Source: Candidatus Omnitrophota bacterium (GTDB taxonomy: Bacteria; Ratteibacteria; UBA8468; B48-G9; DTJG01). Taken from it: 64,000 nt of DNA. The notes below the pieces were generated by a model. It ran no database searches. It saw only the letters and a program-made list of their open reading frames with translations, and was not told where the DNA came from. A program made the translations under genes and the position numbers. Positions 48,808 through 63,907 of this stretch are shown here, piece by piece; position 1 is the stretch's first letter; each line of letters starts with the position of its first letter. The DNA lies in NCBI GenBank assembly GCA_023484085.1, contig JAMDAS010000017.1:1430-65429 (forward strand). Reading direction: 5' to 3'.

Positions 48808-49137
48808 TCATAATGACGCGTAAATTGTTTCCCTTTGCATGGTTGGAATAGGGTTGATTTCGTTCTGAATACTGTCACCCAAACGATCTTTTTCTTTTTC
48901 CAGATCATATTTTGATTGCAAGTTAAGCCAAAATCTCTCAGAGAGATTAAAATAATGCGCGAGACGAAGGGCTGTATCCGCACTGATAGACCGAGTTCCT
49001 AAAACAATTTCGTTAATACGTCTTGGCGGCACATGGATATCCTTTGCCAACCTGTATTGGCTAATACCGAGGGGTTTCAAGAATTCTTCAAGCAATATTT
49101 TTCCCGGAGATACTGGTTGTGTTTTTTTTTGTCTCAT
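48808..49137 (-). CDS. higA: HigA antitoxin (XRE-HTH)
   Basis: SPGKILLEEFLKPLGISQYRLAKDI...RLAHYFNLSERFWLNLQSKYDL pattern. Confidence 0.75.
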   Translation of the reverse strand: MRQKKTQPVSPGKILLEEFLKPLGISQYRLAKDIHVPPRRINEIVLGTRSISADTALRLAHYFNLSERFWLNLQSKYDLEKEKDRLGDSIQNEINPIPTMQRETIYASL

Positions 49138-49151
49138 AATAATTTCTCCTT

Positions 49152-49433
49152 TTAGTGATAATCAAGAATTTCAACGTTATAAGCGTTTCCGTTATGCCAC
49201 CTGAAACATATACGCCATTGGTCATTAATGCGAATACTATATTGGTTCGCCACACCATGGTGCAGTTTTTCCAAGCGGTTGCCTGGCGGAACGCGTAAAT
49301 CATCAAGTGTATCCGAGGCGTCCAAAACTAAAAGTTTTCGCAATGCGATTCGTTGTAAATCCGCAGAGAATCGTTTTGTAGCCTGTCGTTGAAAAACCCT
49401 CTCTGTTTCCCTGCAACGAAAACTTTTAATCAT
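49152..49433 (-). CDS. higB: HigB toxin (RelE/ParE family)
   Basis: MIKSFRCRETERVF...LRVPPGNRLEKL...QYSIRINDQWRICFRW...VEILDYH pattern. Confidence 0.75.
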   Translation of the reverse strand: MIKSFRCRETERVFQRQATKRFSADLQRIALRKLLVLDASDTLDDLRVPPGNRLEKLHHGVANQYSIRINDQWRICFRWHNGNAYNVEILDYH

Positions 49434-49645: not shown

Positions 49646-49676
49646 ATTTGACAAAATAAAAATATAGTTTTAAAAT
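49646..49676 (+). promoter_or_regulatory. Promoter-like box ATTTGACAAAATAAAAATATAGTTTTAAAAT upstream of hydrogenase module 1
   Basis: TTGACA ... TAAAAT with ~17-nt spacer. Near-identical box at 59959..59988 upstream of module 2. Confidence 0.45.
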
Positions 49677-49840: not shown

Positions 49841-51328
49841 ATGAATAATGTGAATTTTTTCACACTTTTAACAATTTTTGTTCCGATTATAGGCTCATTC
49901 ACTGTGCCTGTTATCTCTTTTTTTTCAAAAAGGCTTAGTACATACTGGGCATGTACAATTGCATTTTTTACGGCTCTATCACCTTTTTTTCTTATTCCTT
50001 ATGTAATATCAGGAGTCCAGTTCGTCTTTGGAAAGCATCTCTATGGGGGAATAAATTGGACACTTAGCGTTGATGCCCTGTCAGTTTTTGTCTCAATAGT
50101 CTCAAGCCTTATATCTGCCTTTATTGTCCTTTATTCCCTGCACTATATAAAAGAAACAGATAACCAGACTGAATACTATTTTATGGTGCTTCTTTTTATT
50201 GGTTCAATGATGGGTCTTGTTTATTCTGCAAATCTTATATTCTTATATGTTTTCTGGGAAATTGCCGCAATATGTTCATGGAGACTTATAGGATTTTACA
50301 GGGTAAGAGAATTTGTCATAAAGGCAGATAAGGCATTTCTCATGACATTTTTGGGAGCGGTTTTGATGCTTATCGGATTCCTGCAGATTTACCATACAAC
50401 ACATACATTTGACATAACGAAGATGAAAGGGACAGGGATACCAATCTCTGCATTTCTGCTTATTCTTGCAGGAATGCTTTCAAAGTCTGCTACATTTCCC
50501 CTTCACTCATGGCTGCCGGATGCAGGTGTCGCACCATCAACTGTAACAGCCCTTCTCCATGCAGCAGTACTTGTAAAAATAGGTGTGTACGTTGCTGCAA
50601 GACTGTTCTGTGATACGTTTGTTCTCCCGCACATATCCTATCCCCTGATAGCAATTATCGCGGTATTTTCAAGTTTAATTGCTGCAGGAGCTGCAGCAGT
50701 TGATTATGACATGAAGAGGATTCTTGCCTATTCTACAATAAGTCAGATTGGGTATATTTTTATTGGGTTTGCGGTTATGAATCCTCTTGGATTTGCAGGA
50801 GCTACCTTTTATATTCTTGCCCATGGATTTTCAAAAGCGGGCTTGTTTTTATGCGCGGGCATTATTGAGCATAATACCCACACAAAGGATATAAGAAAAC
50901 TTGGCGGATTGATAAAAACCATGCCGCTTACGGCTGTAGCATTTCTTATGTGCGCTTTTGCAACGATTGGACTGCCTCCTTTCAGCGGATTTTTTGCAAA
51001 ATTCATGGTTATTATGGGTGCGGTAAAAGCCGGGGAAACAGGGCTTGCTGCACTTGCATTGTTTATTGCGCTTCTTACGATGTTTTATCTTTTCAGGATG
51101 TTTCACGCCATATTTTTGGGAAATCCGAACCATGAGGCAAATCTGCCGGTTGTAGTAAAAGAAAGAACACCTCTTATGGTCTCCACTGTCATTGCATTTT
51201 CATTTTTTGCTCTTCTTACAGGAGTATTTGTCAGGTATCCGATGAAGATAGTACACTCTGCCACCTACGGTATGTTACATATAAATACTATAACAAAAAC
51301 AAAATTTACAGGAGTAGCGGAAAGATAA
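49841..51328 (+). CDS. Complex I NuoM/N-like (Mrp MrpD-like) antiporter-type membrane subunit
   Basis: Proton-antiporter family motif WLPDAGVAPSTVTALLHAAVLVKIGVY. 14-TM-like. ATG 49841 after AAGGA. Confidence 0.75.
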   Translation: MNNVNFFTLLTIFVPIIGSFTVPVISFFSKRLSTYWACTIAFFTALSPFFLIPYVISGVQFVFGKHLYGGINWTLSVDALSVFVSIVSSLISAFIVLYSLHYIKETDNQTEYYFMVLLFIGSMMGLVYSANLIFLYVFWEIAAICSWRLIGFYRVREFVIKADKAFLMTFLGAVLMLIGFLQIYHTTHTFDITKMKGTGIPISAFLLILAGMLSKSATFPLHSWLPDAGVAPSTVTALLHAAVLVKIGVYVAARLFCDTFVLPHISYPLIAIIAVFSSLIAAGAAAVDYDMKRILAYSTISQIGYIFIGFAVMNPLGFAGATFYILAHGFSKAGLFLCAGIIEHNTHTKDIRKLGGLIKTMPLTAVAFLMCAFATIGLPPFSGFFAKFMVIMGAVKAGETGLAALALFIALLTMFYLFRMFHAIFLGNPNHEANLPVVVKERTPLMVSTVIAFSFFALLTGVFVRYPMKIVHSATYGMLHINTITKTKFTGVAER

Positions 51329-51332
51329 AAAA

Positions 51333-53195
51333 ATGGTAAATAATAATTTACTTCTTCCAATCTGGGTTCCTGTTGTCTTTGCATTTGGCGTTTTTGTTTT
51401 CAACGGGAAAAAATGGCTCAGGGAAATATTTGCAGTTTTGGGCACCCTGATTTTTCTGTTTATAACGTGGAATCTTTTTTCTATCAGGGCCATGGACGTT
51501 TATTATAGGGTTCCATGGGCTGGTTTTGGTATGAGTTTTGATTTAAGGCTTTACTCTTTCAGCGGGTTCATTCTCCTATGGCTTGGCATCTTTACTTTGA
51601 TTGTTACACTTTTTTCAACTGTAAAACTTGTTAACCACCCAAGGGCAAATCTTTATTATACCTATATATTTTTGACAGCATGTTTTGGCAGCGGCGCGGT
51701 TCTTTCAAATAATTTTGTCCTTATGGTCTTTTTCTGGGAAGGGCTTTTACTTACTTTATATGGGTTTATCTGTCTTGGTGGCGAAAATTCTTACAGGACA
51801 GCGGTTAAAAGTCTGATTATAGTCGGCTTATGTGATTTTTCCATGATTCTTGGTATAGGAATTATATGGTTTCTTACCGGAACGTTTACAATGTCTAAAA
51901 TATCACTGGTTCCATCCGGTCCGGCAGCAGCTGCGTTTTTCCTTATGATGGCAGGGGCACTCGGAAAAGCAGGCGCTGTTCCTTTTCATACATGGATACC
52001 GGATGCTGCAGATGATGCGCCTGTAACCTTTATGGCTCTTATTCCTGCATCTATTGACAAGCTGATTGGCATTTATCTTCTTGTCAGACTCTGCCTGGAT
52101 TTTTTTGTCCTCAGGCTTAATGACCCTTTCAGTATTACGTTGATGGTAATAGGCGGCCTTACAATTTTAATTACAGGATTCATGGCTTTTATCCAGGATG
52201 ATTTTAAACGGATTCTTTCCTATTCCACAGTAAGCCAGGTGGGTTATATGATTCTCGGAATTGGAACTTTTCTGCCCGTTGGAATAACCGGCGGGTTATT
52301 CCTTATGCTTAATCATTCAATATATGAAAGCGGACTTTTTTTAAGTGCAGGGTCTATTGAACATAAAACAGGAACAACCCGGCTTAATAAGCTTGGAGGA
52401 CTGGGAAAACGTATGCCTGTTACTGCAGTATGTTTTATTATATTTGGTCTTTCAATTTCAGGTATATGGCCGTTTAACGGGTTTATTTCAAAAGAAATGA
52501 TTATTCATAGTTCTATAAATACAGGATGGACTATATTTGCATTATCGGCCTATATAGGAGCAATACTTACAGTTGCTTATATGCTTAAGGCAGGCCATAG
52601 TATATTTTTTGGTCCCGAACCATCAGGAACCAAACAGGTAAAAGAAAGTGAATCCTTATTGCTTATTCCTATGATCATTCTTGCATTTTTATGCATACTT
52701 TTCGGGCTTGATAGTAAGATGCCAATCAAGTTTTCCATCGCTCCTATTTTAAAGAGTCACTTTCCATTAGTAAATCTGAACTTCTACAGTCATGCTCTGT
52801 CAGTTTTTACTCCTGCTGCAGGAATTACCATACTGTGCATTATCATCGCCATTGCAATGTATTTTCTTGGCTGGAAAAAGAGCGGGGGAAAAGCCTCTGT
52901 TTCCTCTGAATCTTTGCGTTATGCCTTGATATTCAAGACGCTGTATGACATGGCTGAACGAAAGTTTTTTGATATTTATGAACAGGGAATAGTATTCCTG
53001 TCCGCTCTTTCAGAAGCTGTTTCCATTGTTTTTGACAGGGGAATGGATTATATTTATGAAACAGCGTTTGTTAATACAGGGAAGAAGATAACTTCTTTGT
53101 TGAAAAGTGCGCATAACGGGAAATATGCCAACTATCTTGCGTGGCTGATTGGAGGCTTGTTTATCGTGGCATGGATATTAATACTGAAATTCTGA
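51333..53195 (+). CDS. Complex I NuoL-like (MrpA-like) antiporter-type membrane subunit
   Basis: 620 aa. HTWIPDAADDAPVTFMALIPASIDKLIGIYLLVR motif. Confidence 0.75.
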   Translation: MVNNNLLLPIWVPVVFAFGVFVFNGKKWLREIFAVLGTLIFLFITWNLFSIRAMDVYYRVPWAGFGMSFDLRLYSFSGFILLWLGIFTLIVTLFSTVKLVNHPRANLYYTYIFLTACFGSGAVLSNNFVLMVFFWEGLLLTLYGFICLGGENSYRTAVKSLIIVGLCDFSMILGIGIIWFLTGTFTMSKISLVPSGPAAAAFFLMMAGALGKAGAVPFHTWIPDAADDAPVTFMALIPASIDKLIGIYLLVRLCLDFFVLRLNDPFSITLMVIGGLTILITGFMAFIQDDFKRILSYSTVSQVGYMILGIGTFLPVGITGGLFLMLNHSIYESGLFLSAGSIEHKTGTTRLNKLGGLGKRMPVTAVCFIIFGLSISGIWPFNGFISKEMIIHSSINTGWTIFALSAYIGAILTVAYMLKAGHSIFFGPEPSGTKQVKESESLLLIPMIILAFLCILFGLDSKMPIKFSIAPILKSHFPLVNLNFYSHALSVFTPAAGITILCIIIAIAMYFLGWKKSGGKASVSSESLRYALIFKTLYDMAERKFFDIYEQGIVFLSALSEAVSIVFDRGMDYIYETAFVNTGKKITSLLKSAHNGKYANYLAWLIGGLFIVAWILILKF

Positions 53196-53196
53196 C

Positions 53197-53356
53197 ATAA
53201 GTTATGGATTTTTCTTTACTCCGCCTAAAAGATTGGCGGACTATCGTGCTTTGAAAAAAACCACGACGCCTGTTTTTACCATATAGGTAGTTGCTTTCCA
53301 AAGAAGGCGGAGAGTATGCACAGGTAGTGCATGTTCTGTGCATAATCCAAACTTAT
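53197..53356 (+). repeat. Structured intergenic repeat, copy 1 (~160 bp)
   Basis: Near-identical to 54849..55008 and 59268..59426. Contains nested hairpins and terminal inverted repeats. Confidence 0.9.
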
Positions 53357-53385
53357 CATGGGTAAAGTTCAAATTATTTATAAAA

Positions 53386-54846
53386 ATGTTTATATTTATT
53401 GTTTTTCCTCTTGTAGGTGCAGGGATTATGCCCCTGCTCGGGAAATTATCAAAAAAGAAATGGCCTGATATTCTTTCTGCCATGGTACTTCTTATTCTAT
53501 TGGTATGTTCAGTCGTTATTTTTTCCCCTTCCCTTAAAGAACCGTGGCAGTATATCCAAAATGTGCATTTTTTAAATGAGCCTGTTCATATTAATCTTGC
53601 CCTTGACAGTTTTAACGGGCTTTTCCTTATTCTTATATCTTTTATCAGTTTTACTATCAGTCTTTTTTCCATAGACTATATGGAAATCTACGGGTCAAAG
53701 CAAATATATTATGCACTGCTTCTTGTTATTGTCGCAGCCCTGAATGGGCTGGTCCTTTCAAAAGACTTATTTGGCATATACATTTTTCTTGAGTCTGCCG
53801 CTATTGCATCATTTGGACTTGTTGCATTTAGCTTAGAAGCAGAAGCACTGGAGGGCGCCTATAAATATCTTTTGTTATCTGTAATTGCATCCGGATTTAT
53901 TCTTCTTGGTATAGTACTGTTGTTTGCCATAACAGGAAGTCTTTCCCTTGATGGAGTAAAAAAGGTAATGGAGATTGTTAATAACAAGTCTGTTATTACA
54001 CTCTGTTCTATTTTGTTTATCGTGGGTTTTGGACTGAAAACCGCCCTAGTTCCATTTCATTCATGGATGCCGGATGCATATACAAAAGCACCTGCAACGT
54101 TTCCTGCAATAAGTTCAGGGCTGATTATAAAAATTACAGGAATTTATGTTTTGGCAAGAATATTTTTTAATATGTTTCAAATAAATGCAGGGGTTTCTTC
54201 CGCTCTTCTGTTTTTGGGGATGTTTTCCATTATTGTGGGCACTTTTCTTGCATTAGGTCAGAAAGATATAAAAAGAATGCTTGCATATTCCTCTATAAGC
54301 CAGGTGGGATATATTATAGCAGGCTTTGGGGTTGGTACGGCTCTTGGCGTAATTGCAGCAATTTTCCAGCTTTTCAATCATTCAATATTCAAATCCCTGC
54401 TTTTTCTTAATGCAGGCTCACTGGAAAAATCAACAGGGACACAATCGCTTGATGAGATGGGGGGATTGGAGAAAAAAATGCCTGTTACAGCAACAACAAA
54501 TGCAGTTGGTCTGCTTTCTACTGCAGGTGTTCCTCCTTTGAACGGATTCTGGAGCAAACTGCTTATTATTATGGCGCTGCTCCAGGCGAAATTATATATT
54601 TATGCCATTATTGCAATCTTTATGAGTGTTCTTACCCTGTGGTATTTCCTGATTGTTCATCGTCAGGCGTTTTTTGGAAAATTAAATGAGAAATGGAGTA
54701 GCGTCAGGGAAGCACCCTTCTGGATGTCTCTCTCAATGATTATATTGGCCCTGGCGTGTTTTGTCATAGGTATTGCTTTTTACATTGTGCTTAAACGTTT
54801 TATCATACCGGCATCAGTACCGCTGGCTGGTTTTATTATGAAATAG
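53386..54846 (+). CDS. Complex I NuoM/N-like antiporter-type membrane subunit
   Basis: HSWMPDAYTKAPATFPAISSGLIIKITGIY motif. The ORF-track start at 53338 lies inside the repeat, so the start was moved to MFIFIVFPLVG. Confidence 0.7.
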   Translation: MFIFIVFPLVGAGIMPLLGKLSKKKWPDILSAMVLLILLVCSVVIFSPSLKEPWQYIQNVHFLNEPVHINLALDSFNGLFLILISFISFTISLFSIDYMEIYGSKQIYYALLLVIVAALNGLVLSKDLFGIYIFLESAAIASFGLVAFSLEAEALEGAYKYLLLSVIASGFILLGIVLLFAITGSLSLDGVKKVMEIVNNKSVITLCSILFIVGFGLKTALVPFHSWMPDAYTKAPATFPAISSGLIIKITGIYVLARIFFNMFQINAGVSSALLFLGMFSIIVGTFLALGQKDIKRMLAYSSISQVGYIIAGFGVGTALGVIAAIFQLFNHSIFKSLLFLNAGSLEKSTGTQSLDEMGGLEKKMPVTATTNAVGLLSTAGVPPLNGFWSKLLIIMALLQAKLYIYAIIAIFMSVLTLWYFLIVHRQAFFGKLNEKWSSVREAPFWMSLSMIILALACFVIGIAFYIVLKRFIIPASVPLAGFIMK

Positions 54847-54848
54847 AA

Positions 54849-55008
54849 ATAAGTTATAGATTTCTCTTTACTCCGCCTAAAAGATTGGCGGACTATCGTG
54901 CTTTGAAAAGAACCACGACGCCTGTTTTTACCATATAGGTAGTTGCTTTCCAAAGAAGGCGGAGAGTATGCACAGGTAGTGCATGTTCTGTGCATAATCC
55001 AAACTTAT
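54849..55008 (+). repeat. Structured intergenic repeat, copy 2
   Basis: See copy 1. Confidence 0.9.
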
Positions 55009-55027
55009 TATAATTTAAGGAAAGTAT

Positions 55028-55498
55028 ATGACTATATTTATTCTTATATTGCTGATAATTTTTTCAATTCTTGCTGTGTTTTTAAGGGACCTTTTAAAGG
55101 CTGCATTAAGTCTTGCAGCAGCAAGTATATGCCTAACAATTATATTTTTCCTACTTCATGCTTTTTATGCGGGGGTTTTTGAAATATCCGTTGTTGCAGG
55201 GCTCATAATAGTTCTTTTTGTAACAACGATTTCACTTACCAGGTCGGAAACACCTGTTAAAGAATCTCTGATGGCGTATTTTTTCTTTCCTATATTTTTT
55301 ATCCTTATTATAGGGGTTGATTTGATGATATATAAAAGATTTTCTATGGGTATCCCATCTGTTACCGGGACTATTTTCCATGGAAACTTTGGTGATGTTT
55401 TCTGGGGAAAAAGGTCTTTTGACCTGATTGGACAGGTTTGCATAATCTTTGCCGGGGTTTTTTCTGTTCTAACTCTTTTCAGGAGGAAAAATGAGTAA
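55028..55498 (+). CDS. NuoJ-like membrane subunit
   Basis: AALSLAAASICLTIIFFLLHAFYAGVFEISVVAGLIIVLFV resembles the NuoJ core (..A.F.A..e..VYaGAi.VLF). Confidence 0.5.
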   Translation: MTIFILILLIIFSILAVFLRDLLKAALSLAAASICLTIIFFLLHAFYAGVFEISVVAGLIIVLFVTTISLTRSETPVKESLMAYFFFPIFFILIIGVDLMIYKRFSMGIPSVTGTIFHGNFGDVFWGKRSFDLIGQVCIIFAGVFSVLTLFRRKNE

Positions 55499-55829
55499 TC
55501 CAGCAGGCTCGTTAACGTTATTAAACAGCCAGTGGCTTCTATACATGGGAATTGTCATTATTCTTGTATTTATTGGCATATATTGTCTTTTAACAATGAA
55601 AAATATTATAAAACTTTTAATCGGGATAGAGGTTTTTTCCAAAGGGATTTCTCTTGCAATCATTGCAACCGGGTTTGCAAAAAAGAACATCCTGCTTGCA
55701 CAGGGTATAATGATTACTTTTATCGTCATTGAAGTGGCCGTCATTGCAGTGGCTCTTGGTATAGTAATAAATATTTATAACAAGACAGGAAGTCTTGACA
55801 TAAGAAAGATAACCAAACTAAAAGGATAA
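55491..55829 (+). CDS. NuoK/MrpC-like membrane subunit
   Basis: 112 aa, 3 TM. LLIGIEVFSKGISLAIIATG resembles the NuoK signature. Confidence 0.65.
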   Translation: MSNPAGSLTLLNSQWLLYMGIVIILVFIGIYCLLTMKNIIKLLIGIEVFSKGISLAIIATGFAKKNILLAQGIMITFIVIEVAVIAVALGIVINIYNKTGSLDIRKITKLKG

Positions 55830-55831
55830 AA

Positions 55832-56167
55832 ATGGATAATAGTATAAAAATATTGCTTTCTCCGCCACTGGCATTTTTGTTTTTTTTATGTGTCTCTGCC
55901 GGAATATATAAAATTGCCGGTAAATTTTCCGCAAAGGGAAAACCATCACAGGGGAAACTAAAAACATATGTTGGCGGTGAGGACATACAGGGATATAAAA
56001 TACAGTTTGGATACAAATCCTTTTTCTTTGTCGCGATTTTCTTTACAATGATAGAAGTGTCAACTCTGGTTATTGCTACTATCCATAGCAGGTTTGTTCT
56101 TCTTGGAATGTTTTATCTTGCAATGATTTTTCTTGCAATTTTTGCGTTAATAACAAGGGAAACATAA
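55832..56167 (+). CDS. Small membrane subunit, NuoA-like
   Basis: 111 aa. TYVGGEDIQGY...FFFVAIFFTMIEVSTLVI resembles NuoA (pYEcG...flaiLFllFDvE). Confidence 0.4.
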   Translation: MDNSIKILLSPPLAFLFFLCVSAGIYKIAGKFSAKGKPSQGKLKTYVGGEDIQGYKIQFGYKSFFFVAIFFTMIEVSTLVIATIHSRFVLLGMFYLAMIFLAIFALITRET

Positions 56168-56170
56168 AAA

Positions 56171-56599
56171 ATGATAGAGAAAATTATTAAATGGTCACGA
56201 TTAAAATCTCCATGGGTTCTTCATCTTAACACAGGAGGATGCAATGCCTGTGATATTGAACTGCTTGCGGCGCTGATGCCCCGGTTTGACGTTGAAAGAT
56301 TCGGAATACTGTCAAAAGCCACACCCCGGCATGCGGATGTGCTTGTTTGTATAGGACCTTTGACACGTCAGACAAAAGACAGGGTGGTAAGAATATACGA
56401 ACAGATGCCTGAACCAAAATTTGTCATCGCTGTGGGTGCATGTGCAATGTCCGGCTGTGTGTACAGAGGGGCTTATAATATCGTAGGTGGTGTAGACCAG
56501 GTTCTTCCTGTAGATATGTATGTACCGGGATGTCCTGCAAGACCGGATGCAATAATTGATGGAATAGTAAAATTATTAACAAAGATTGGAAAGGGGTAA
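56171..56599 (+). CDS. [NiFe] hydrogenase group 4 small subunit (NuoB homologue)
   Basis: GGCNACDIE, GACAMSGC and PGCPARP proximal [4Fe-4S] Cys motifs. Confidence 0.85.
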   Translation: MIEKIIKWSRLKSPWVLHLNTGGCNACDIELLAALMPRFDVERFGILSKATPRHADVLVCIGPLTRQTKDRVVRIYEQMPEPKFVIAVGACAMSGCVYRGAYNIVGGVDQVLPVDMYVPGCPARPDAIIDGIVKLLTKIGKG

Positions 56600-57073
56600 A
56601 TGATGGAAAAGTCTCTTATAAGCAGGTTAAAAGAATTTTTAGCGGAAAAAATAGTTGAATCAGCAAATCCATCCAAAAGGAGAATATTCATAAAGGTGTT
56701 GCCTGAAAATCTTCCGGATACCATACAAATTTTGAAAGAAAAGACAGGTTTTACACATTTATCAACTATTACAGGCGTGGATAAAGGGGAAACGTTTGAA
56801 ATCCTGTATCATTTTGCCAATAAAATTGCTGTGCTGACAGTCAGGACAGAAGTCCCTGCAGGTAAACCGGAAATAAAAACAATTACGAAGATTATTCCAG
56901 GGGCAATTCTGTATGAAAGAGAACTCCAGGATATGTTTGGAATAAAGGTAATGGAAATTCCTGACCCGAGGCCACTTATCCTGCCTGATGGATGGCCTGA
57001 AGGTAATTATCCATTAAGAAAAAACTGGAAATACCAGAGGCCTGAGGAAATAATACCTGGAGGGGGAAAATAA
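56600..57073 (+). CDS. NuoC-like (30 kDa) hydrogenase subunit
   Basis: ERELQDMFGI...PDPRPLIL motif of the NuoC/HycE-N family. Confidence 0.75.
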   Translation: MMEKSLISRLKEFLAEKIVESANPSKRRIFIKVLPENLPDTIQILKEKTGFTHLSTITGVDKGETFEILYHFANKIAVLTVRTEVPAGKPEIKTITKIIPGAILYERELQDMFGIKVMEIPDPRPLILPDGWPEGNYPLRKNWKYQRPEEIIPGGGK

Positions 57074-58278
57074 TGTCTATAACCATACCCATTGGGCCAC
57101 AGCATCCTGCTCTAAAGGAGCCTATAAGCTTAAAGATGACGTTTGATGGGGAAATCATAAAAGATGCTGACATAAGACTCGGCTACAATCATAGAGGTCT
57201 TGAAAAGCTTTTTGAGGGTAAAAGTTATGTCCAAAACATTTATGTTACAGAAAGAATATGCGGGATATGTTCCCATTCCCATACAACCTGTTTTGTCAAT
57301 GGCGTTGAAAAACTTCTGGGTATTGAAATACCCAAACGGGCTTCGTACATAAGAATGCTTATTGGTGAACTTGAAAGGGTCCATAGCCATCTTTTATGGC
57401 TTGGTGTGGCTGGCCATGAAGCAGGGTTTGAATCATTTTTTATGTATACATGGAGGGACAGGGAGATTGTAATGGACATTCTTGAAGAATCTTCCGGCAA
57501 CAGGGTTCACTATGCCATAAATACCATCGGCGGGGTAAGAAGGGATATTGATGAAACACAAAGGACAAGAATCCTAAATTCCCTGAAAATCCTGAAAGAA
57601 AGAACAGACTATTATAAAAATCTGGGAACTACAGAGCCCAGTTTTGTAGCAAGACTGTCAGGCATAGGAATTCTTCCCAGGGAACAGGCTCTTTCTTTAT
57701 GCTCCGTAGGACCAACCCTTCGCGCCTCAAATATTGACATGGACGTAAGAAAAGATGACCCTTATCTTGCATATGATGAGGTTCCGTTTGAGGTATCTAC
57801 TGCTGATACATGCGATGTCCTTGGCAGAACAGTGGTAAGAATAAAAGAATTATTCCAGTCATACAATATTATAGAATATATTCTCAGGAACCTGCCTGCC
57901 GGGGATATAAAAGCAAAGGTGCCAAGAAAGGTTCCTGCAGGTGAGACTGTCAGCAGATATGAGGCTCCAAGGGGTGAAAACATCCACTATATAAAAAGTA
58001 ATGGAACAGAAAAACCGGAAAGACTGAAGGTAAGGGCTCCAACACTCGCCAATTATCCTGCTACGGTTGCAATGTTAAAAAATGGCTTTATTGCTGACAT
58101 ACCGCTTATATTTGCCGCCATAGACCCATGTATATGCTGTGCTGAACGAATGGTAGAGGTAAAAGATACAAAAACAGGAAGAGCGGAAATAAAGACATTT
58201 GATGAATTAAAAAAATATTCCAGGGATTTTTATAAAAACCACAAAAAAATAAAAAAGGATACCGTATGGCCATTCTAA
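57073..58278 (+). CDS. [NiFe] hydrogenase group 4 large subunit (NuoD homologue, Ni-binding Cys retained)
   Basis: N-terminal L1 motif RICGICSHSH and C-terminal L2 motif DPCICCAER are both present. Confidence 0.85.
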   Translation: MSITIPIGPQHPALKEPISLKMTFDGEIIKDADIRLGYNHRGLEKLFEGKSYVQNIYVTERICGICSHSHTTCFVNGVEKLLGIEIPKRASYIRMLIGELERVHSHLLWLGVAGHEAGFESFFMYTWRDREIVMDILEESSGNRVHYAINTIGGVRRDIDETQRTRILNSLKILKERTDYYKNLGTTEPSFVARLSGIGILPREQALSLCSVGPTLRASNIDMDVRKDDPYLAYDEVPFEVSTADTCDVLGRTVVRIKELFQSYNIIEYILRNLPAGDIKAKVPRKVPAGETVSRYEAPRGENIHYIKSNGTEKPERLKVRAPTLANYPATVAMLKNGFIADIPLIFAAIDPCICCAERMVEVKDTKTGRAEIKTFDELKKYSRDFYKNHKKIKKDTVWPF

Positions 58279-59234
58279 AAACATTTTTTTATCTTTTGGT
58301 ATATCCGGGGTTAGTGTTTCTAATTGTATATTCTCTTTTTTGTGAATGGTTTGACAGGAAAACGTATGCGCGTCTGCAAAACAGGAGAGGTCCCCTGCAT
58401 ACAGGAAAAGCAGGACTGCTGCAGCCTGCAGCAGATTTAATAAAGCTTTTTTCCAAAGAGGACATTGTCCCTGAAAAAGCAGACAGGATTATGTTTACGG
58501 CACTTCCTGTTTTTGGTCTTGCAATAATTTTAACTTCCGCCATGTACCTGCCCATCTGGAATTATTCCATGACAAAAACAGGTTTTAATTCTTTTCCCGG
58601 GGACATTATAGTGCTTATATACCTTTTAAGTCTTCCCACAATAATACTATTTCTTGCAGGATGGCATTCAACAAGCTTTTTCTCAACTATCGGAGGGGTA
58701 AGGGTGATAACAATGTTTTTTGGCTATGAAATCCCTTTGCTTTTATCTGTCCTGAGTCCTGCTATCCTTGCAGGCTCATGGCGTCTTGCTGAAATTGCAC
58801 AATTTTTTCAGGCTAATCCCGGACTGCTTTCTGTCAACGTTATAGGGTTTTTTATTGCTCTTGCAGCACTCCAGGCAAAGCTTGAAAGAACCCCGTTTGA
58901 CATACCCCATGCAGAAACTGAAATCGTTGGAGGCACATTTACAGAATATACAGGAAGGAAACTTGCATTTTTCAGGCTTATAACCGACATAGAAATGGTT
59001 GTAGGCAGCGGTCTGATTGCAACAGTTTTTCTTGGTGGCTTTCCAGGCGGGATATTCTCATCTTTTATCTGGTTTATTATAAAAACACTTTTTGTCATAT
59101 TTCTGCTTTCTGTAATAAAAGCGGCATTTTCAAGGCTCAGGATTGACCAGATGGTCAGGTTCTCATGGTATATTCTTGCTCCATTGGGAATACTGCAGAT
59201 TTTTATAACGTTGCTTGTTAAACTGAAATTCTGA
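58266..59234 (+). CDS. NuoH-like membrane subunit (HycD/EchB/MbhM homologue)
   Basis: RRGPLHTGKAGLLQPAADLIKLF N-terminal region and 8-TM pattern of NuoH. Confidence 0.8.
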   Translation: MAILKTFFYLLVYPGLVFLIVYSLFCEWFDRKTYARLQNRRGPLHTGKAGLLQPAADLIKLFSKEDIVPEKADRIMFTALPVFGLAIILTSAMYLPIWNYSMTKTGFNSFPGDIIVLIYLLSLPTIILFLAGWHSTSFFSTIGGVRVITMFFGYEIPLLLSVLSPAILAGSWRLAEIAQFFQANPGLLSVNVIGFFIALAALQAKLERTPFDIPHAETEIVGGTFTEYTGRKLAFFRLITDIEMVVGSGLIATVFLGGFPGGIFSSFIWFIIKTLFVIFLLSVIKAAFSRLRIDQMVRFSWYILAPLGILQIFITLLVKLKF

Positions 59235-59267
59235 TATAAGAAATATGGACAATGAACAAAGTAAGAG

Positions 59268-59426
59268 ATAACTTTGGGTTTCTCTTTTCTCCGCCTAAAA
59301 GATTGGCGGACTATCGTGCTTTGAAAAGAACCACGACGCCTGTTTTTACCATATAGGTAGTTGCTTTCCAAAGAAGGCGGAGAGTATGCACAGGTAGTGA
59401 TTGTTCTGTGCATAACCCAAAATTAT
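59268..59426 (+). repeat. Structured intergenic repeat, copy 3 (most diverged; changes fall in loops or are compensatory)
   Basis: See copy 1. Confidence 0.9.
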
Positions 59427-59468
59427 CATGGGAAAGACAATCCAAATTTATCGGAAAGGAGTATTTTA

Positions 59469-59891
59469 ATGGGAAAGAAATTAGGATTTTTTATACCGGA
59501 ACTCTGGAGGCATATTTTTAAAAAACCGGCAACGGTTGACTATCCTTTTGAAAAGCTCAAAGTACCAAAAGGATTCAGAGGTTTACCGGTATTAAACACG
59601 GAATTATGTATTGTATGCAAAGCCTGTGAAAGGGATTGTCCTGCTGAAGCCATTGAAATCAGAACTATTTTGGAAGAAGAAAAAAAATTCCAGATGACCA
59701 TTCATAATGACAGATGTGTACATTGCGGCCAGTGTGCAGACGTATGTCCTACAAATGCCATGACACTAAACAATGAATTTGAACTGTCTGAGCCTTCACG
59801 ATGGAATATGAAGTTTAGATATGCATATACAAGACAATTAAGAAAAAAATCTGATAGGAACGTAGATGAAAAAGATAAAGAAATATTATAA
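59469..59891 (+). CDS. NuoI-like 2x[4Fe-4S] ferredoxin subunit (MbhN/EchF homologue)
   Basis: CIVCKACERDCP and CVHCGQCADVCP motifs. Start at MGKKLGFF after GGAAAGGAG. The ORF-track start at 59361 is inside the repeat. Confidence 0.8.
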   Translation: MGKKLGFFIPELWRHIFKKPATVDYPFEKLKVPKGFRGLPVLNTELCIVCKACERDCPAEAIEIRTILEEEKKFQMTIHNDRCVHCGQCADVCPTNAMTLNNEFELSEPSRWNMKFRYAYTRQLRKKSDRNVDEKDKEIL

Positions 59892-59958: not shown

Positions 59959-59988
59959 ATTTGACAAAATAAAATATAGTGTTAAAAT
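59959..59988 (+). promoter_or_regulatory. Promoter-like box ATTTGACAAAATAAAATATAGTGTTAAAAT upstream of hydrogenase module 2
   Basis: Near-identical to the box at 49646..49676. Confidence 0.45.
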
Positions 59989-60123
59989 TAAAATTAACAA
60001 TCTGAATTACCCTTGATAATTCAGATATAAAAGACTTATGGCAGTGAATGCAACATAAAAGTAAAAACAGATAATTTTTAAAAAAAATAAATTTTTTTAG
60101 ATATATTGTGAGTGTGTTCACAA

Positions 60124-61215
60124 ATGGATACATATTTCATAAATAAAAAAGAATGGAATAAATATATCGGGGAAAAAAGTGCGGAAATAAAAACTTATGC
60201 TCCATATGAAAGTACTGAACCTCTGCTCTCAAATGGAACACAATTTGTAAAAACGGACAACAACCAATCTTCCTCACTGTTTTGGAAAACAGTTAATCCT
60301 GAAAATGTTGATAATGTAGTCTATGACAGGATGCATCCTGTTGCACCATTAAAGATTTTTTTCTTTCCATTCAAGGAGAGAATACTTCCTGCAATAGGCA
60401 ATGTAGAACCTTTTATCATTATTGGGGCAACAAACTGCGACCTTCTTGCACTTGATACAACAGATAAGGTTTTCATAAACAATGATTATAAAGACCCGAC
60501 ATATGGTTTGAGGAGAGAACAAGCCACCATTATCTCCATTGACTGCCAGAAACCCGATGAATATTGTTTTTGTGAGTTATGGGGCAACAGAACATACCCT
60601 GAGAAGAACTTTGACCTGAATCTTACATATATGGAAGATGGTTTTATTGTGGAAATCGGCTCAGAAAAAGGTGAAAAAATAATCAGGGGGATTGCTAAAA
60701 AGGAAAAGACTGCTGAGAACAGTATGAAAATCAGGGAATCTATCAGAAAACAAACAAAAAATATTGTCCAGGCAAATAATTCTAAATATAAATTATGTGA
60801 AATGGGACACATAAGAAATGACATACCCGCCTGCATGGAAAATAAGATTGAATCCCCCGGATGGAAATCAGGGGCATTTGACTGCGTCCAGTGTGGAGCA
60901 TGTAACGCATCCTGTCCTACATGTGTATGTTTTTTACTTGAAGATTTTAGTTCACGGGTGTCTTTTTCAAAGACAAAAATATGGGACTATTGTCTTTATC
61001 AGTCTTATGCAAAAATGGCATCAGGTGTTTCCCCCAGGTCGCTTTTATGGGAAAGGTATGCCAACAGGCTTCTCTGTAAATACAGGTACATGGTAAAGAA
61101 TTTGGGAATAGTGGGCTGTACCGGATGCGGCAGATGTATTTCAGGCTGCCCCGGGAAAATAGATAAAAGAAAAATTCTTGAAGAGGTATTTAAAGAAAAT
61201 GGAGAATATATATAA
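60124..61215 (+). CDS. Fe-S subunit, sulfhydrogenase beta (HydB)/anaerobic sulfite reductase AsrA-like
   Basis: CVQCGACNASCPTC and CTGCGRCISGCP ferredoxin-type motifs plus additional Cys (CQKPDEYCFC). ~360 aa. Confidence 0.6.
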   Translation: MDTYFINKKEWNKYIGEKSAEIKTYAPYESTEPLLSNGTQFVKTDNNQSSSLFWKTVNPENVDNVVYDRMHPVAPLKIFFFPFKERILPAIGNVEPFIIIGATNCDLLALDTTDKVFINNDYKDPTYGLRREQATIISIDCQKPDEYCFCELWGNRTYPEKNFDLNLTYMEDGFIVEIGSEKGEKIIRGIAKKEKTAENSMKIRESIRKQTKNIVQANNSKYKLCEMGHIRNDIPACMENKIESPGWKSGAFDCVQCGACNASCPTCVCFLLEDFSSRVSFSKTKIWDYCLYQSYAKMASGVSPRSLLWERYANRLLCKYRYMVKNLGIVGCTGCGRCISGCPGKIDKRKILEEVFKENGEYI

Positions 61216-62029
61216 ACCGGTAAAATGCGAGGTTTCAGACGTTTTTAAGGAATCATCCACTATAAAAACAGTACGTCTTACACCCGTGGAGCAGTTTTCT
61301 TTCCAGGCGGGCCAGTTTATTTCTTTTACTGTCCCTGGAGTCGGGGAAGCTCCTTTTACACCGTCTTCTTCCCCTTTTGAAAAAAATTATATTGATGTAA
61401 CCGTCATGAAAACAGGCAGGGTAACAGGTGCAATCCATGAACTTAAAAAGGGGGATATAACAGGTATAAGAGGACCCTATGGGAAGCCCTACCCTCTTGA
61501 AAAATTTAACAATAAGAATATTTTGCTTGTAGGCGGAGGTGTAGGTCTTGCTCCTCTTCGTGCTTTATTTTATGCACTTGTTGAAACACTTGATAACTAT
61601 AAATCCATTGTTTTTTGCTGTGGAGCAAAAACACCTGATGACTTTATCTTTAAACAGGAGGTTTTTGAAACCTGGCTGTCAGAAAAATGGCTTTCATCCA
61701 GGGGGCAGGTTTGTTTCCGTATTACCGTTGATAAAAAAGACGCAGGATGGAATTACGGCGATGGTGTGGTAACAAAAACACTCGACGGATTGCCCTGCAG
61801 CCCGGAAAATGCCATCGTATGCGGACCTCCCATTATGATGAAGTTTACGACACTGAAACTGTTGGATGTGGGATATAAACCTGAAAATATTTATCTGTCA
61901 ATGGAAAGAAAGATGTATTGTGCAATCGGCCAGTGCAGGCATTGTCTTATCGGAGACAAGTTTGTGTGCAAAGACGGACCTGTGTTTACGTACGAGGAAA
62001 TAAAAGGACAGCCAAAAATATGGGCATAA
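61199..62029 (+). CDS. FAD/NAD(P)H-binding [2Fe-2S] oxidoreductase subunit, sulfhydrogenase gamma (HydG)/AsrB/PyrK-like
   Basis: Ferredoxin-reductase-type FAD domain (RLTPVEQFSFQAGQFISF), NAD(P)-binding LLVGGGVGLAPL, C-terminal 2Fe-2S CAIGQCRHC...C. Alternative start at 61178. Confidence 0.65.
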   Translation: MENIYKPVKCEVSDVFKESSTIKTVRLTPVEQFSFQAGQFISFTVPGVGEAPFTPSSSPFEKNYIDVTVMKTGRVTGAIHELKKGDITGIRGPYGKPYPLEKFNNKNILLVGGGVGLAPLRALFYALVETLDNYKSIVFCCGAKTPDDFIFKQEVFETWLSEKWLSSRGQVCFRITVDKKDAGWNYGDGVVTKTLDGLPCSPENAIVCGPPIMMKFTTLKLLDVGYKPENIYLSMERKMYCAIGQCRHCLIGDKFVCKDGPVFTYEEIKGQPKIWA

Positions 62030-62078
62030 TGAATTCATAACAATGCAAGAAATAGATTAAAAGAAGTAGTGAAACAAG

Positions 62079-62570
62079 ATGAAAAAATTATACATAGATT
62101 ACGAAAAATGTCAGTCATGTCCAAAGTGTGTTGTAAATTGCAGATATCCATATCACCCGGATAACAATGGAATAAAATATCTGCATGAGCTTATATCCTT
62201 TGAGTTTGTCTGCCGCAGGTGTAAGGACCATCCATGTGTAAATGCATGTGTTTATAATGCCCTGAAAAGAGAAAATGATGTTATCGTGAGAAGCAAATTA
62301 AGGTGCGTTTCATGTAAAAGCTGTGCCATGGCATGTCCATTTGGCACAATATTTTATGATTCAATACCATATATCGTAAGTAATTGCGATTTCTGTATTG
62401 AAAACCTGCAGACTGAGCAATTGCCTTTATGCGCAAAGAAATGCCCTGAATACGCAATAAGGTATATAGATGAGGAAGAAATAAAAAATGAGAAATATCT
62501 TGAAAGACTTGGACAGCATCTTATCGTAAAGGTGTTTAACTGGCTCAAATTCCAGGAAATAAAAAAATGA
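62079..62570 (+). CDS. Polyferredoxin (HycB-like, ~4 [4Fe-4S] motifs)
   Basis: CQSCPKCVVNC, CRRCKDHPCVNAC, CVSCKSCAMACP, CDFC...CAKKCP. Confidence 0.7.
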   Translation: MKKLYIDYEKCQSCPKCVVNCRYPYHPDNNGIKYLHELISFEFVCRRCKDHPCVNACVYNALKRENDVIVRSKLRCVSCKSCAMACPFGTIFYDSIPYIVSNCDFCIENLQTEQLPLCAKKCPEYAIRYIDEEEIKNEKYLERLGQHLIVKVFNWLKFQEIKK

Positions 62571-63472
62571 ATATTTTAAACGTTGTTCTATTGTCTATCG
62601 TATGGTCTATTTTTCTTATAGCAGCTGGATTGCTTATACTTGGAGTTGAAAGAAAAATTACGGCAAGACTGCAGTGGCGGGTCGGACCACCATGGTGGCA
62701 GAATTTTACTGATATTATAAAACTTTCAGCCAAGGAAACGTCCATACCTGAACGTGCGAACAGGTTTATTTTTATTTTTGCCCCGATTGTTTCTTTTTTG
62801 GGAGCACTTGCTGCAGGCGTTATCATAATTTTTTCTCTTCTGTATGGAATAAGTTTCCGGGGAGACTTGATTACCGTTATTTTTCTTTTGACATTACCGT
62901 ATTCAGGTCTTATTCTTGGCGGCAGTTCTTCAGGAAATGCTCTCGCCTCTGTGGGCTCATCAAGAGCGCTTAAACTCACTCTTGCCTGTGAACTACCCTT
63001 TATTGCATCGCTGGTTCTGATTATTTTAAAATCAAATCTTTCAACGTCTATCTATAATATCGTGAACATGCAAAAAAATACGGGCATTAATTTCTTCTCA
63101 GTATCAGGGTTCATTGCATTTTTTGTAGCATTCTGGGGAAGCATAGGAAAACTCGGGATTGTCCCTTTTGACCTTGCTGAAGCGGATACGGAAATTGCAG
63201 GAGGGGCACTTTTTGAATATTCGGGAATTCTTCTTGGCTTTTTCAAACTGACAAAAGCTGTTTTGTTTATCGTGGTACCACTTTTACTCATTGCATCTTT
63301 TTTTGGAAGTTTTAACGTATTGGCATGGATTTTGGAATATCTTGTCATATTTTTACTCCTGATTATCGTAAAAAATACGAATCCAAGACTCAGGATTGAC
63401 CAGTCGCTTCGTTTTTTCTGGAAAGTAATAATAATACTTATAATTGCAAGTTTTGTTTTTATGAAAATATAA
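62567..63472 (+). CDS. NuoH-like membrane subunit, second copy
   Basis: LGVERKITARLQWRVGPPWWQNFTDIIKL N-terminal region of the NuoH/HycD family. Confidence 0.75.
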   Translation: MNILNVVLLSIVWSIFLIAAGLLILGVERKITARLQWRVGPPWWQNFTDIIKLSAKETSIPERANRFIFIFAPIVSFLGALAAGVIIIFSLLYGISFRGDLITVIFLLTLPYSGLILGGSSSGNALASVGSSRALKLTLACELPFIASLVLIILKSNLSTSIYNIVNMQKNTGINFFSVSGFIAFFVAFWGSIGKLGIVPFDLAEADTEIAGGALFEYSGILLGFFKLTKAVLFIVVPLLLIASFFGSFNVLAWILEYLVIFLLLIIVKNTNPRLRIDQSLRFFWKVIIILIIASFVFMKI

Positions 63473-63473
63473 A

Positions 63474-63890: not shown

Positions 63891-63907
63891 GGAGAATAAG
63901 GAAAAAT

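Follow-up and report, generated by a model that had tools for sequence, protein, structure and literature searches.

This locus raises the question of whether a single enzyme can combine the catalytic metal site of a [NiFe] hydrogenase with the full membrane arm of complex I. In a 64,000-nt stretch of the Candidatus Omnitrophota contig JAMDAS010000017.1 (here called the window, in which all coordinates are counted), eleven open reading frames (ORFs) at 49832/49841-59891 on the forward strand point in one direction and are joined by short or overlapping junctions. Subunits are named by their homology to Nuo, Hyf, and Mbh proteins. A sequence-only reading of this DNA had proposed an eleven-gene complex I-like set arranged differently from nuoA-N, and Pfam and NCBIfam searches bore out both points: every ORF within 49841-59891 was assigned to a Nuo-type family, and three antiporter-like genes are followed, on the same strand, by homologues of NuoJ, NuoK, NuoA, NuoB, NuoC, NuoD, NuoH, and NuoI, in that order. 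The content of the cluster is that of complex I in having homologues of NuoA, B, C, D, H, I, J, and K plus three antiporter-like subunits, and it is also that of a group 4 hydrogenase in having a NuoH-like anchor, a NuoI-like protein with two [4Fe-4S] clusters, and antiporter-like subunits in one operon. No NuoE, NuoF, or NuoG homologue was found among the eleven ORFs, as had also been claimed. We conclude, with a probability of roughly 0.7, that the cluster is an operon predicted to encode a membrane-bound, energy-converting [NiFe] hydrogenase that is driven by ferredoxin and follows the complex I (Nuo) plan in its 11 subunits; its function would most likely be that of an ion-translocating ferredoxin:H+ oxidoreductase.

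Relatives of the operon were collected in a one-genome-per-species scan, which returned 595 loci, and the best 80 of them were examined with an ORF/blastp script (the 80 related loci). The predicted large subunit contains the L1 motif RICGICSHSH at residues 61-70 and the L2 motif DPCICCAER at residues 351-359, followed by a C-terminal tail of 42 amino acids (aa), such that the two NiFe motifs named by the sequence-only reading are present and the site appears to be intact. Residues C63, C66, C353, C356, E16, and R359 were invariant among 13 diverse homologues, and Glu16 is the proton-relay glutamate of group 4 enzymes. Moreover, both motifs were kept in all 80 related large subunits, each of which retained the four cysteines, and the NiFe site appears to be under purifying selection. 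The closest PDB chains were MbhL (299.6 bits) and HycE (280.6 bits), followed by Nqo4 (220.6 bits) and MbsL (179 bits), and the large subunit was 41% identical to MbhL, 36% identical to HyfG, and 29% identical to Escherichia coli NuoD. When the protein was aligned to Nqo4, His38 corresponded to Lys15, with Glu16 next to it, and Asp86-Tyr87 corresponded to Cys63-Gly64 of L1; thus, the histidine and tyrosine that ligate quinone in Nqo4 appear to be replaced. An NCBI protein from a metagenome-assembled genome (MAG), named [quoted passage not shown] is 100% identical to the large subunit.

The predicted small subunit carries the motif GGCNACDIE...GACAMSG...GCP, for a single [4Fe-4S] cluster. Its best PDB match was MbhJ (160.6 bits, 52% identity), ahead of NdhK (133 bits) and the PSST subunit of complex I (127 bits). 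The sequence CNAC is a CxxC arrangement with a 3-residue insertion relative to NdhK, whereas cluster N2 of complex I and NDH is ligated by a tandem CC, and the pattern G-x-C-x-x-C-D-I-E was present in 77 of the 78 small subunits scored. The catalytic pair is hydrogenase-like because its members find their closest matches among Mbh proteins and because the small subunit has CxxC. We conclude that the evidence supports a group-4-type [NiFe] hydrogenase with a predicted intact metal site.

Maturation genes are consistent with a nickel-containing large subunit. The C-terminal tail, which was 29 to 48 aa long in 80/80 related large subunits, aligns with the HycE peptide that is removed by HycI, and it would presumably be cleaved during maturation. 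A HycI-family protease was found by blastp in 50 of the 80 related loci, and by clustering it was the commonest conserved neighbor, located directly downstream on the same strand in 43 loci. In the window, the HycI-family gene sits 12.6 kb upstream of the operon, and its product is 42% identical to the cluster-linked proteases. We note that the window HycI gene (36732-37205) adjoins a Gp49-like/helix-turn-helix pair at 35895-36582 that is probably a toxin-antitoxin system.

The sequence-only reading had singled out the 111-aa and 156-aa ORFs as the ones whose assignment to Mrp or Mbh small subunits would make the enzyme an ordinary Mbh-type hydrogenase, and profile comparisons favored NuoA and NuoJ instead. 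A profile of 15 orthologues of the 111-aa ORF gave 24 distinct PDB matches, all to NuoA, ND3, or NdhC (best E value, 4e-4), and no MBH or MBS chain was among them. A Y-x-C-G-E motif, which aligns with the YECG loop of ND3, was present in 73/73 of the NuoA-like ORFs recovered from the 80 loci. In hhalign comparisons, the 111-aa ORF scored 81% against E. coli NuoA, 96.5% against a Bathyarchaeota PF00507 protein, and 98.8% (E value, 6e-17) against a 108-aa Asgard protein that itself has a confident PF00507 match in Pfam. Because of the PDB profile matches and the hhalign results, the 111-aa ORF appears to be a genuine, albeit divergent, NuoA/ND3 homologue. The 156-aa ORF resembled MbsD (E value, 1.2e-11), MbhD (2.9e-11), and E. 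coli NuoJ (1.6e-7) in its N-terminal half, and its C-terminal end weakly matched MbsE/MbhE in the same PDB profile search. By hhalign it aligned with E. coli NuoJ at 95.7% over 128 columns that cover NuoJ residues 27-162, or nearly the whole protein, rather than being split as MbhD plus MbhE, and it appears to be an unsplit NuoJ with an Mbh-like sequence.

The remaining small membrane subunit and the anchor point in different directions. The NuoK-like protein was closest to MbsG/MbhG (approximately 50 bits), with NdhE (34 bits) and Nqo11 (29 bits) behind, and it has one glutamate that aligns with E36 of NuoK and a second near E72. The NuoH-like protein was closest to Nqo8 (160.8 bits), E. coli NuoH (145.9 bits), and NdhA (139 bits), followed by MbhM (84.5 bits), HycD (64 bits), and MbsM (47 bits). 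The enzyme thus appears to be a mosaic of complex I-type subunits (NuoH and NuoA) and subunits that are closest to Mbh/Mbs (the large subunit, the small subunit, NuoJ, and NuoK). In complex I, NuoH and NuoA form the quinone/coupling region together with the counterparts of the catalytic pair. No subunit of the Mrp/Mbh sodium module (MrpE/F/G/B; MbhA/B/C/F) was found in the cluster or in the 80 related loci, and the 80 loci had no extra small membrane genes.

Antiporter-like subunits 1, 2, and 3 each keep the charge chain of a glutamate in transmembrane helix 5 (TM5), a lysine in TM7, and a lysine in TM12: Glu140, Lys215, and Lys387 in subunit 1; Glu136, Lys212, and Lys387 in subunit 2; and Glu136, Lys218, and Lys391 in subunit 3. 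Subunit 2 additionally has D168 and E388 as equivalents of the NuoL-specific D178 and D400. The first gene had been read as a NuoM/N-like protein of 498 aa and must be corrected, as it encodes 495 aa and, by blastp and a neighbor-joining tree, a NuoL/HyfD-like core that lacks the C-terminal lateral helix; its best NCBIfam models were HyfD and NuoL, and its E. coli matches were NuoL (196 bits) and HyfD (195 bits). Subunit 2 matched E. coli NuoL (135 bits) and HyfB (130 bits), and it aligned at residues 33-617 with positions 34-610 of 615 in NCBIfam NuoL, at residues 14-614 with positions 10-610 of 613 in PRK08668, and at residues 36-615 with positions 47-623 of Mycobacterium smegmatis NuoL (8e9g_L). 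Because subunit 2 aligns with all three from end to end, including the C-terminal extension, it appears to carry the lateral helix HL and the last transmembrane helix. The PRK08668 model, "NADH dehydrogenase subunit M," shares its name with, and is similar in length to, the 618-aa chain 6u8y_X of MBS, which we take to be MbsH'. Subunit 3 matched HyfF (165 bits) ahead of NuoN (130 bits) in E. coli, with PRK08376 (MrpD type) as the best NCBIfam model and NuoN as the next.

A rough neighbor-joining tree, built with few references and no support values, placed subunit 1 with NuoL/HyfD, placed subunit 2 in a separate clade of HL-bearing proteins, and placed subunit 3 as N-like. In the same tree, the antiporter-like subunits of three loci with a variant gene order (L071, L072, and L080) mapped one to one to L, M, and N. 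Thus, "three antiporter-like subunits" appears to be a correct description of the window's family and "NuoL plus NuoM plus NuoN" appears not to be strictly correct. The statement of the sequence-only reading that known group 4 enzymes have one or two antiporter-like subunits does not hold, as E. coli Hyf has three.

The gene arrangement recurs widely. About 60 of the best 80 related loci had the same order, and the order was identical wherever the contig was long enough. Hosts of the same order, as species-level MAGs, belong to Aminicenantes/Acidobacteriota, WOR-3, Ratteibacteria, TA06, Lentisphaerota, and Edwardsbacteria, and also to UBP2, Bacteroidales, Bacillota, Actinomycetota, and Omnitrophota, with large-subunit identities of 58 to 75%. 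A variant order, J-K-L-M-N-A-B-C-D-H-I, was found in Syntrophomonadaceae, Methanobacteriota, and Thermoplasmata MAGs. Because the order is kept across species and phyla and the NiFe motifs are kept in every one of the 80 loci, the arrangement is not due to chance. Thousands of large-subunit homologues at approximately 70% identity occur in Aminicenantes and other phyla. Near-identical proteins are named either NuoD ("NADH-quinone oxidoreductase subunit D") or "nickel-dependent hydrogenase large subunit," and other sources use "membrane-bound hydrogenase subunit alpha" (many homologues in JGI) or "Ni,Fe-hydrogenase III large subunit." Because the naming is inconsistent, pathway callers will assign the enzyme now to a partial complex I and now to the hydrogenases, and MAG studies may score such genes as "partial complex I" (PMC10290634).

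To place the family among its neighbors, 1.84 billion representatives were searched, and the nearest clusters outside the family had large subunits 45 to 54% identical to that of the window. A Methanoregula MAG (L086; 53%) has the order J-K-(1094-aa antiporter fusion)-490 aa-A-B-C-D-H-I-HycI, a Bathyarchaeota scaffold (L087; 51%) has NuoA-B-CD-H-I-J-K-L-M-N plus an FrhB/FpoF-like gene and keeps the NiFe cysteines, Anaerolineae have relatives at 48 to 51%, and Promethearchaeota/Hodarchaeota loci (L084/L085; 45%, 396 bits) have NuoA-B-CD-H-I. The large subunit scored 392 to 460 bits against the Nuo-type clusters of Methanoregula, Bathyarchaeota, and Asgard archaea versus 300 bits against MbhL. 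Nuo-type NiFe hydrogenases thus appear to form a broad set, of which the window's operon is the bacterial branch.

Two of these neighbors merit description. L087 (7848-18896 of ENA ERZ23491060) has the canonical nuo order with an L subunit of 649 aa and an FrhB/FdhB-domain protein last, and its fused NuoCD carries ERICGICNVAH and DPCFACTDR motifs and a C-terminal tail in an otherwise Fpo/Nuo-like cluster. L086 (1-13015 of JGI Ga0117941_1000151, Methanoregula-like) holds tandem hydrogenase clusters, the first a short B-C-D (359 aa)-I set and the second of the Nuo type, with NuoJ split into 87 and 80 aa, two antiporter-like proteins fused into 1094 aa, and HycI after them.

Enzymes of this general kind have been predicted before in archaea. 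A "complex I-like NiFe-hydrogenase" with the HL helix and two antiporters was predicted in the Asgard Freyarchaeia/Atabeyarchaeia (Valentin-Alvarado et al. 2024, PMC11291895), and groups 4j, 4m, 4p, and 4q, within 4j-4q, were predicted to be complex I-like in Heimdallarchaeia, with NuoBCDI, no NuoEFG, ferredoxin on NuoI, and a shorter membrane arm than complex I (Appler et al. 2024, bioRxiv 10.1101/2024.07.04.601786). The window's operon shares with the Asgard complexes a NuoB/C/D/I arm with a catalytic NiFe NuoD and no NuoEFG, as well as an HL helix on an L-like subunit, and it shares with L084/L085 the NuoA-B-C/D-H-I block order and a related NuoA (the Asgard protein compared above); by block order, NuoA homology, and the HL extension, it falls within the predicted Asgard-type class. 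It differs in being bacterial, in having an unfused NuoC and eleven contiguous genes in another order, and in having three antiporter-like subunits, whereas the Asgard arm is described as shorter and missing one or more. Korarchaeia have enzymes of HydDB class 4g with co-located NuoLM-like genes (PMC10667645), and among Omnitrophota, Cloacimonadota, and Armatimonadota, "4g" hydrogenases and complexes termed "partial Nuo" have been reported from MAGs, with "4g" being polyphyletic. The Nuo-linked "4g"-type loci L086 and L087 have large subunits 51 to 53% identical to that of the window and co-located Nuo-like J, K, L, M, N, A, and H genes, and HycI lies downstream in L086 as in most loci of the window's family. 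Their gene orders differ from that of the window, and the antiporter-like subunits of such variants correspond one to one to L, M, and N, whereas those of the window's family appear not to.

The idea of a complex I-like NiFe hydrogenase is therefore not new, with the Asgard (2024) and Korarchaeia "4g" (2023) accounts preceding it. In the literature searched, the 11-gene cluster of bacteria was nowhere described in its own right; apart from the archaeal accounts, MAG papers referred to "group 4" or "4g" in generic terms. The sequence-only reading had called the architecture an intermediate between energy-converting hydrogenases and complex I; the eleven homologues, the NiFe site, and the lack of an Mrp module agree with that view, but E. 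coli Hyf already has three antiporter-like subunits, enzymes of this type had been predicted in archaea, and the antiporter-like subunits here appear not to map one to one onto L, M, and N. We conclude that the operon adds a new variant, bacterial and full length, to a kind of enzyme that was recognized recently and is uncharacterized.

Comparison with known enzymes shows what the variant combines. E. coli Hyf likewise has three antiporter-like subunits (HyfB, HyfD, and HyfF), NuoH-like and NuoK-like subunits, a NiFe large subunit, and a HycE-like cleavable C-terminal tail. HyfD and HyfF are the best or near-best E. coli matches of subunits 1 and 3, and subunit 2 is about equally close to NuoL and HyfB. 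Unlike the window's operon, Hyf lacks a counterpart of NuoA and carries NuoC as a domain fused with its large subunit, and it has a HyfA/HycB ferredoxin-like subunit that provides a link to formate dehydrogenase H; no HycB-like gene was found in the module, and formate dehydrogenase is not conserved in the flanks of related loci. HyfC is also less NuoH-like, with 63 bits to NuoH versus 151 bits for the window's protein. Pyrococcus furiosus MBH (group 4d; PDB 6CFW) and MBS (6U8Y) share the ferredoxin-dependent logic without an input module and are the closest solved structures for the large subunit, the small subunit, the N-terminal half of NuoJ, and NuoK, but the window's operon lacks both the Mrp-type Na+ module and the split NuoJ that they have. 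MBH has one antiporter-like subunit and MBS has two, and both have the A/B/C/F sodium module and a split NuoJ (PMC8165549). NDH-1, Fpo-like enzymes, and Desulfitobacterium Nuo11 (PMC11238625) resemble the window's enzyme in their eleven subunit families, in having NuoH and NuoA of complex I type and a lateral helix of NuoL type, in lacking NuoEFG, and in a donor that is either unknown or ferredoxin. In those 11-subunit enzymes, which use quinone or methanophenazine as the electron acceptor, the NiFe ligands are gone and the N2 site has tandem cysteines (PMC11238625), whereas the window's operon keeps the NiFe ligands, CxxC, the tail, and HycI.

The predicted complex would have a peripheral arm of the NuoI-like subunit with two [4Fe-4S] clusters, the NuoB-like subunit with one, the NuoC-like subunit, and the NuoD-like large subunit, attached to a membrane arm of complex I-type NuoH, NuoA, unsplit NuoJ, NuoK with its glutamates, and three antiporter-like subunits, and the full set of NiFe ligands would lie at the position of the complex I quinone site. 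Reduced ferredoxin from fermentation would dock on the NuoI-like subunit, which is the presumed electron-donor docking site and has blastp scores of 61 bits to NuoI and 59 bits to HyfH. Electrons would then cross three [4Fe-4S] clusters to the NiFe site, where 2H+ would be reduced to H2, and the free energy would drive translocation of H+ (or Na+) through the NuoH/A/J/K channel and the antiporter-like subunits, which the lateral helix would tie together. The large subunit would be matured by insertion of nickel and by cleavage of its C-terminal peptide by a HycI-type protease, and the reaction would probably be reversible. No formate dehydrogenase, carbon monoxide dehydrogenase, NuoEFG, or other input module was conserved in the flanks of the related loci, as expected for direct donation by ferredoxin and as in Mbh and Ech. 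The host context appears anaerobic and sugar degrading, with GH38, GH95, and GH20 glycoside hydrolases, a flavodiiron protein, and a ferritin/rubrerythrin-like protein encoded in the window.

Six points weigh against this interpretation. NuoJ, NuoK, and the catalytic pair appear nearer to Mbh/Mbs than to complex I in sequence. We infer ferredoxin as the donor only from the missing input module, and the complex I-type attachment of the arms, as opposed to the rotated Mbh type, is predicted from the identities of NuoA, NuoH, and NuoJ. No hyp gene was detected among the window ORFs scanned, with HycI as the only maturation gene, and the literature searched contained no biochemical work on any member of the family. 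Finally, three antiporter-like subunits and a NuoH/A/J/K channel look oversized for the force available. With ferredoxin at approximately -500 mV and the H+/H2 couple at -414 mV (1 bar) to approximately -296 mV (10 Pa), we calculate from standard potentials that electron transfer from ferredoxin to H2 yields about 17 to 39 kJ per 2e-, which at approximately 14.5 kJ per H+ (150 mV) allows approximately 1 to 2.7 ions and not 4. Because this energy is small, the 4 H+/2e- of complex I is out of reach at a normal membrane potential, and therefore either the stoichiometry is lower or part of the arm is an exchanger. The same puzzle arises for E. coli Hyf, in which a reaction of low energy is likewise paired with a large membrane arm. 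Three ways out may be envisioned: only some of the modules might pump per turnover, part of the arm might swap Na+ for H+, or the enzyme might often run in reverse.

The last of these is itself an alternative, in which the same enzyme would be an H2-oxidizing, gradient-consuming ferredoxin reductase, like Eha/Ehb or Ech in methanogens and some acetogens, and the large arm would let in several ions per electron pair to push H2 electrons uphill onto ferredoxin. On general thermodynamic grounds, a high ion-to-electron ratio is a better fit for reverse flow than for forward pumping; Methanoregula, Methanobacteriota, Thermoplasmata, and Bathyarchaeota, where close relatives are found, are groups that need anabolic ferredoxin reduction; and group 4 enzymes are generally reversible (PMC6349859). 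We nonetheless consider reverse flow unlikely as the principal function, as most carriers (Aminicenantes, Omnitrophota, and WOR-3) are fermentative sugar degraders, the window is rich in glycoside hydrolases, and no CO2-fixation genes are adjacent.

A different electron donor is less probable still. The donor might be an adjacent AsrA/AsrB-like NAD(P)H-type module (60112-62570) or an F420-type module, as module 2, described below, begins 220 bp downstream of the operon, the Bathyarchaeota relative L087 ends with an FrhB_FdhB-domain protein, and 11-subunit complex I-like enzymes have been proposed to be docking platforms for various donors (PMC11238625). The AsrA/AsrB-like genes, however, adjoin the cluster in none of the other 80 loci, module 2 has NuoH-like and NuoB-like genes of its own and a promoter-like site at 59961-59988, and the flanks of the related loci contain no conserved partner.

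Two further alternatives have very little left in their favor. One is an ordinary Mbh/Mrp-type (group 4d) hydrogenase with small ORFs overread as NuoA and NuoJ, for which the best solved structures (MbhL, MbhJ, MbsD/MbhD, and MbsG/MbhG for the large subunit, small subunit, N-terminal half of NuoJ, and NuoK) and the JGI name "membrane-bound hydrogenase subunit alpha" might speak; it is largely refuted by the lack of MrpE/F/G/B homologues in the cluster and the 80 loci, by the unsplit NuoJ and the presence of NuoA, by an anchor that scores 161 bits to Nqo8 versus 84.5 bits to MbhM, by three antiporter-like subunits versus one in MBH (PMC8165549), and by a large subunit that is just 41% identical to MbhL and scores higher against Nuo-type clusters. 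The other, an 11-subunit Nuo-type quinone reductase, draws on eleven Nuo homologues without NuoEFG, as in the enzymes of PMC11238625, on a NuoH and NuoA of the complex I type, and on NuoD as the top NCBIfam model for the large subunit (342.6 bits, below the cutoff of 360), and it is opposed by the invariant four cysteines, catalytic glutamate, and arginine, the cleavable tail with its linked HycI, the missing quinone-ligating histidine and tyrosine, and a small subunit with CxxC instead of the tandem CC of N2.

The boundaries of the genes were refined by orthologue alignments, which retained ATG 49841 as the start of the first gene, as previously read, and moved two others, the third gene to ATG 53386 from GTG 53338 and the NuoI-like gene to ATG 59469 from TTG 59361. 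The N-terminal extensions of the ORFs beginning at 53338 and 59361 are spurious because a 166-nt repeat has been inserted in the spacers. The repeat is present in three copies that are 90 to 97% identical, in the same orientation, and each in an intergenic spacer; copies 1 and 2 begin at the stop codon of the upstream gene and copy 3 begins 30 nt past it, and orthologous spacers in other genomes are approximately 10 bp long. The element has terminal inverted repeats of approximately 13 to 14 nt (ATAAGTTATGGATT / AATCCAAACTTAT) and folds much better than shuffled sequence (z scores of -4.1 and -5.6), and it looks like a miniature inverted-repeat transposable element of the Correia/ERIC kind. 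Rfam gave no meaningful match to it. Neither the remaining 54 kb of the window nor the 80 loci contained another copy, and scans of JGI metagenome contigs with an exact 29-mer and with a structure-based degenerate pattern found none. The element may affect mRNA processing or the relative expression of subunits. We note that all three copies in the 64 kb sit within the hydrogenase operon. Coordinates of the operon, the repeats, and the window HycI gene are collected in Table 1.

TABLE 1 Predicted features of the hydrogenase operon and the HycI-family gene, in window coordinates
Feature	Position	Strand	Basis or remark
HycI-family maturation endopeptidase, 157 aa	36732..37205	+	Pfam PF01750, 1.9e-19
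Candidate sigma-70-type promoter, TTGACA-17-TAAAAT	49648..49676	+	Consensus scan, 11/12 matches; function inferred
Antiporter-like subunit 1, 495 aa	49841..51328	+	Pfam PF00361, 3e-68, plus PF00662 (Proton_antipo_N)
Antiporter-like subunit 2, 620 aa	51333..53195	+	Pfam Proton_antipo_M, 2.5e-55; NuoL/MbsH'-type C-terminal extension
166-nt repeat, copy 1	53194..53359	+	Between the genes for antiporter-like subunits 2 and 3
Antiporter-like subunit 3, 486 aa, MrpD/NuoN/HyfF-like	53386..54846	+	Pfam PF00361, 7e-71
166-nt repeat, copy 2	54846..55011	+	97% identical to copy 1
NuoJ-like, 156 aa, unsplit	55028..55498	+	Pfam Oxidored_q3, 33.8 bits; MbhD, 25.1 bits
NuoK/MrpC/MbhG-like, 112 aa	55491..55829	+	Pfam Oxidored_q2, 1.4e-18
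NuoA/ND3-like, 111 aa	55832..56167	+	Pfam PF00507 (Oxidored_q4), 22.0 bits versus cutoff of 23.3; NCBIfam NuoA, 1.3e-4
Hydrogenase small subunit/NuoB-like, 142 aa	56171..56599	+	Pfam PF01058 (Oxidored_q6), 2e-31
NuoC-like, 157 aa, unfused to large subunit	56600..57073	+	Pfam PF00329 (Complex1_30kDa), 3e-30; NCBIfam FpoC/NuoC
[NiFe] large subunit/NuoD-like, 401 aa	57073..58278	+	Pfam PF00346 (Complex1_49kDa) plus PF00374 (NiFeSe_Hases)
NuoH/ND1-like membrane anchor, 322 aa, complex I type	58266..59234	+	Pfam PF00146 (NADHdh), 2.7e-84
166-nt repeat, copy 3	59264..59429	+	90 to 93% identical to the other copies
NuoI-like, 2x[4Fe-4S], 140 aa	59469..59891	+	Pfam Fer4 families; two CxxCxxCxxxCP motifs

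Approximately 400 bp of noncoding DNA, which holds the candidate promoter, precedes the first gene of the operon. Just upstream of the promoter region, a two-gene pair at 48808-49433 on the reverse strand is a toxin-antitoxin candidate by ORF size and arrangement only. Glycoside hydrolase genes are located upstream of the operon, and the rest of the window, which reads as an ordinary housekeeping region of an anaerobe's chromosome, encodes RpoD, DnaG, RNase Y, RNase III, YidC, the flavodiiron protein, GH38, GH95, and GH20. Downstream, a second group-4-type module (module 2) occupies 60112-64000 on the forward strand and runs off the end of the window, starting 220 bp beyond the operon with its promoter-like site in between. 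It contains genes for an AsrA-like protein (Fer4_22, 367 aa), an AsrB-like protein (FAD/NAD/2Fe-2S, 283 aa), a Fer4_11 ferredoxin (163 aa), a NuoH-like protein (301 aa) 32% identical to that of the first module, and a NuoB-like protein (138 aa) 52% identical to that of the first module and 56% identical to MbhJ. The order of module 2 matches the "hun" operon of Atribacteria (bioRxiv 10.1101/536078) and the AsrAB-linked hydrogenase of Saganbacteria/Omnitrophica (PMC6349859), and module 2 adjoins the first module in none of the 80 related loci. Further complex I-like modules were sought upstream in the window and none was found, with only module 2 sharing NuoH and NuoB paralogues.

What the enzyme might mean for complex I follows from where it stands. 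Hydrogenases of known structure, MBH and formate hydrogenlyase (FHL), have short and differently attached membrane arms, and to our knowledge the NiFe site is gone from every 11-subunit enzyme studied to date. The enzyme predicted here fills the gap because eleven Nuo-type subunits, including ND3-like and ND1-like proteins, coexist with an NiFe site, and the ND3-like and ND1-like proteins are central to current models of coupling. We tentatively suggest, at less than even odds, that the operon may encode a complete complex I-type coupling machine, in the orientation of complex I, that would be powered by proton reduction at an NiFe site and not by quinone chemistry; its parts would be an ND1/ND3/ND6/ND4L-like channel, three antiporter-like pumps, and a lateral helix. 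The consensus is that complex I arose from an 11-subunit ancestor shared with membrane-bound hydrogenases (PMC11238625), and if the suggestion is true, loss of the NiFe site would have come after the full membrane arm and the ND3/ND1 coupling loops were in place. The enzyme would also offer a quinone-free natural system in which to test how redox chemistry drives distant pumps, and it would help to ask how many ions are moved at about 15 to 40 kJ per electron pair. The enzyme is abundant in uncultured anaerobes, and it bears both on why low-energy hydrogenases such as Hyf have three antiporter-like subunits and on whether the long-range coupling of complex I requires quinone chemistry.

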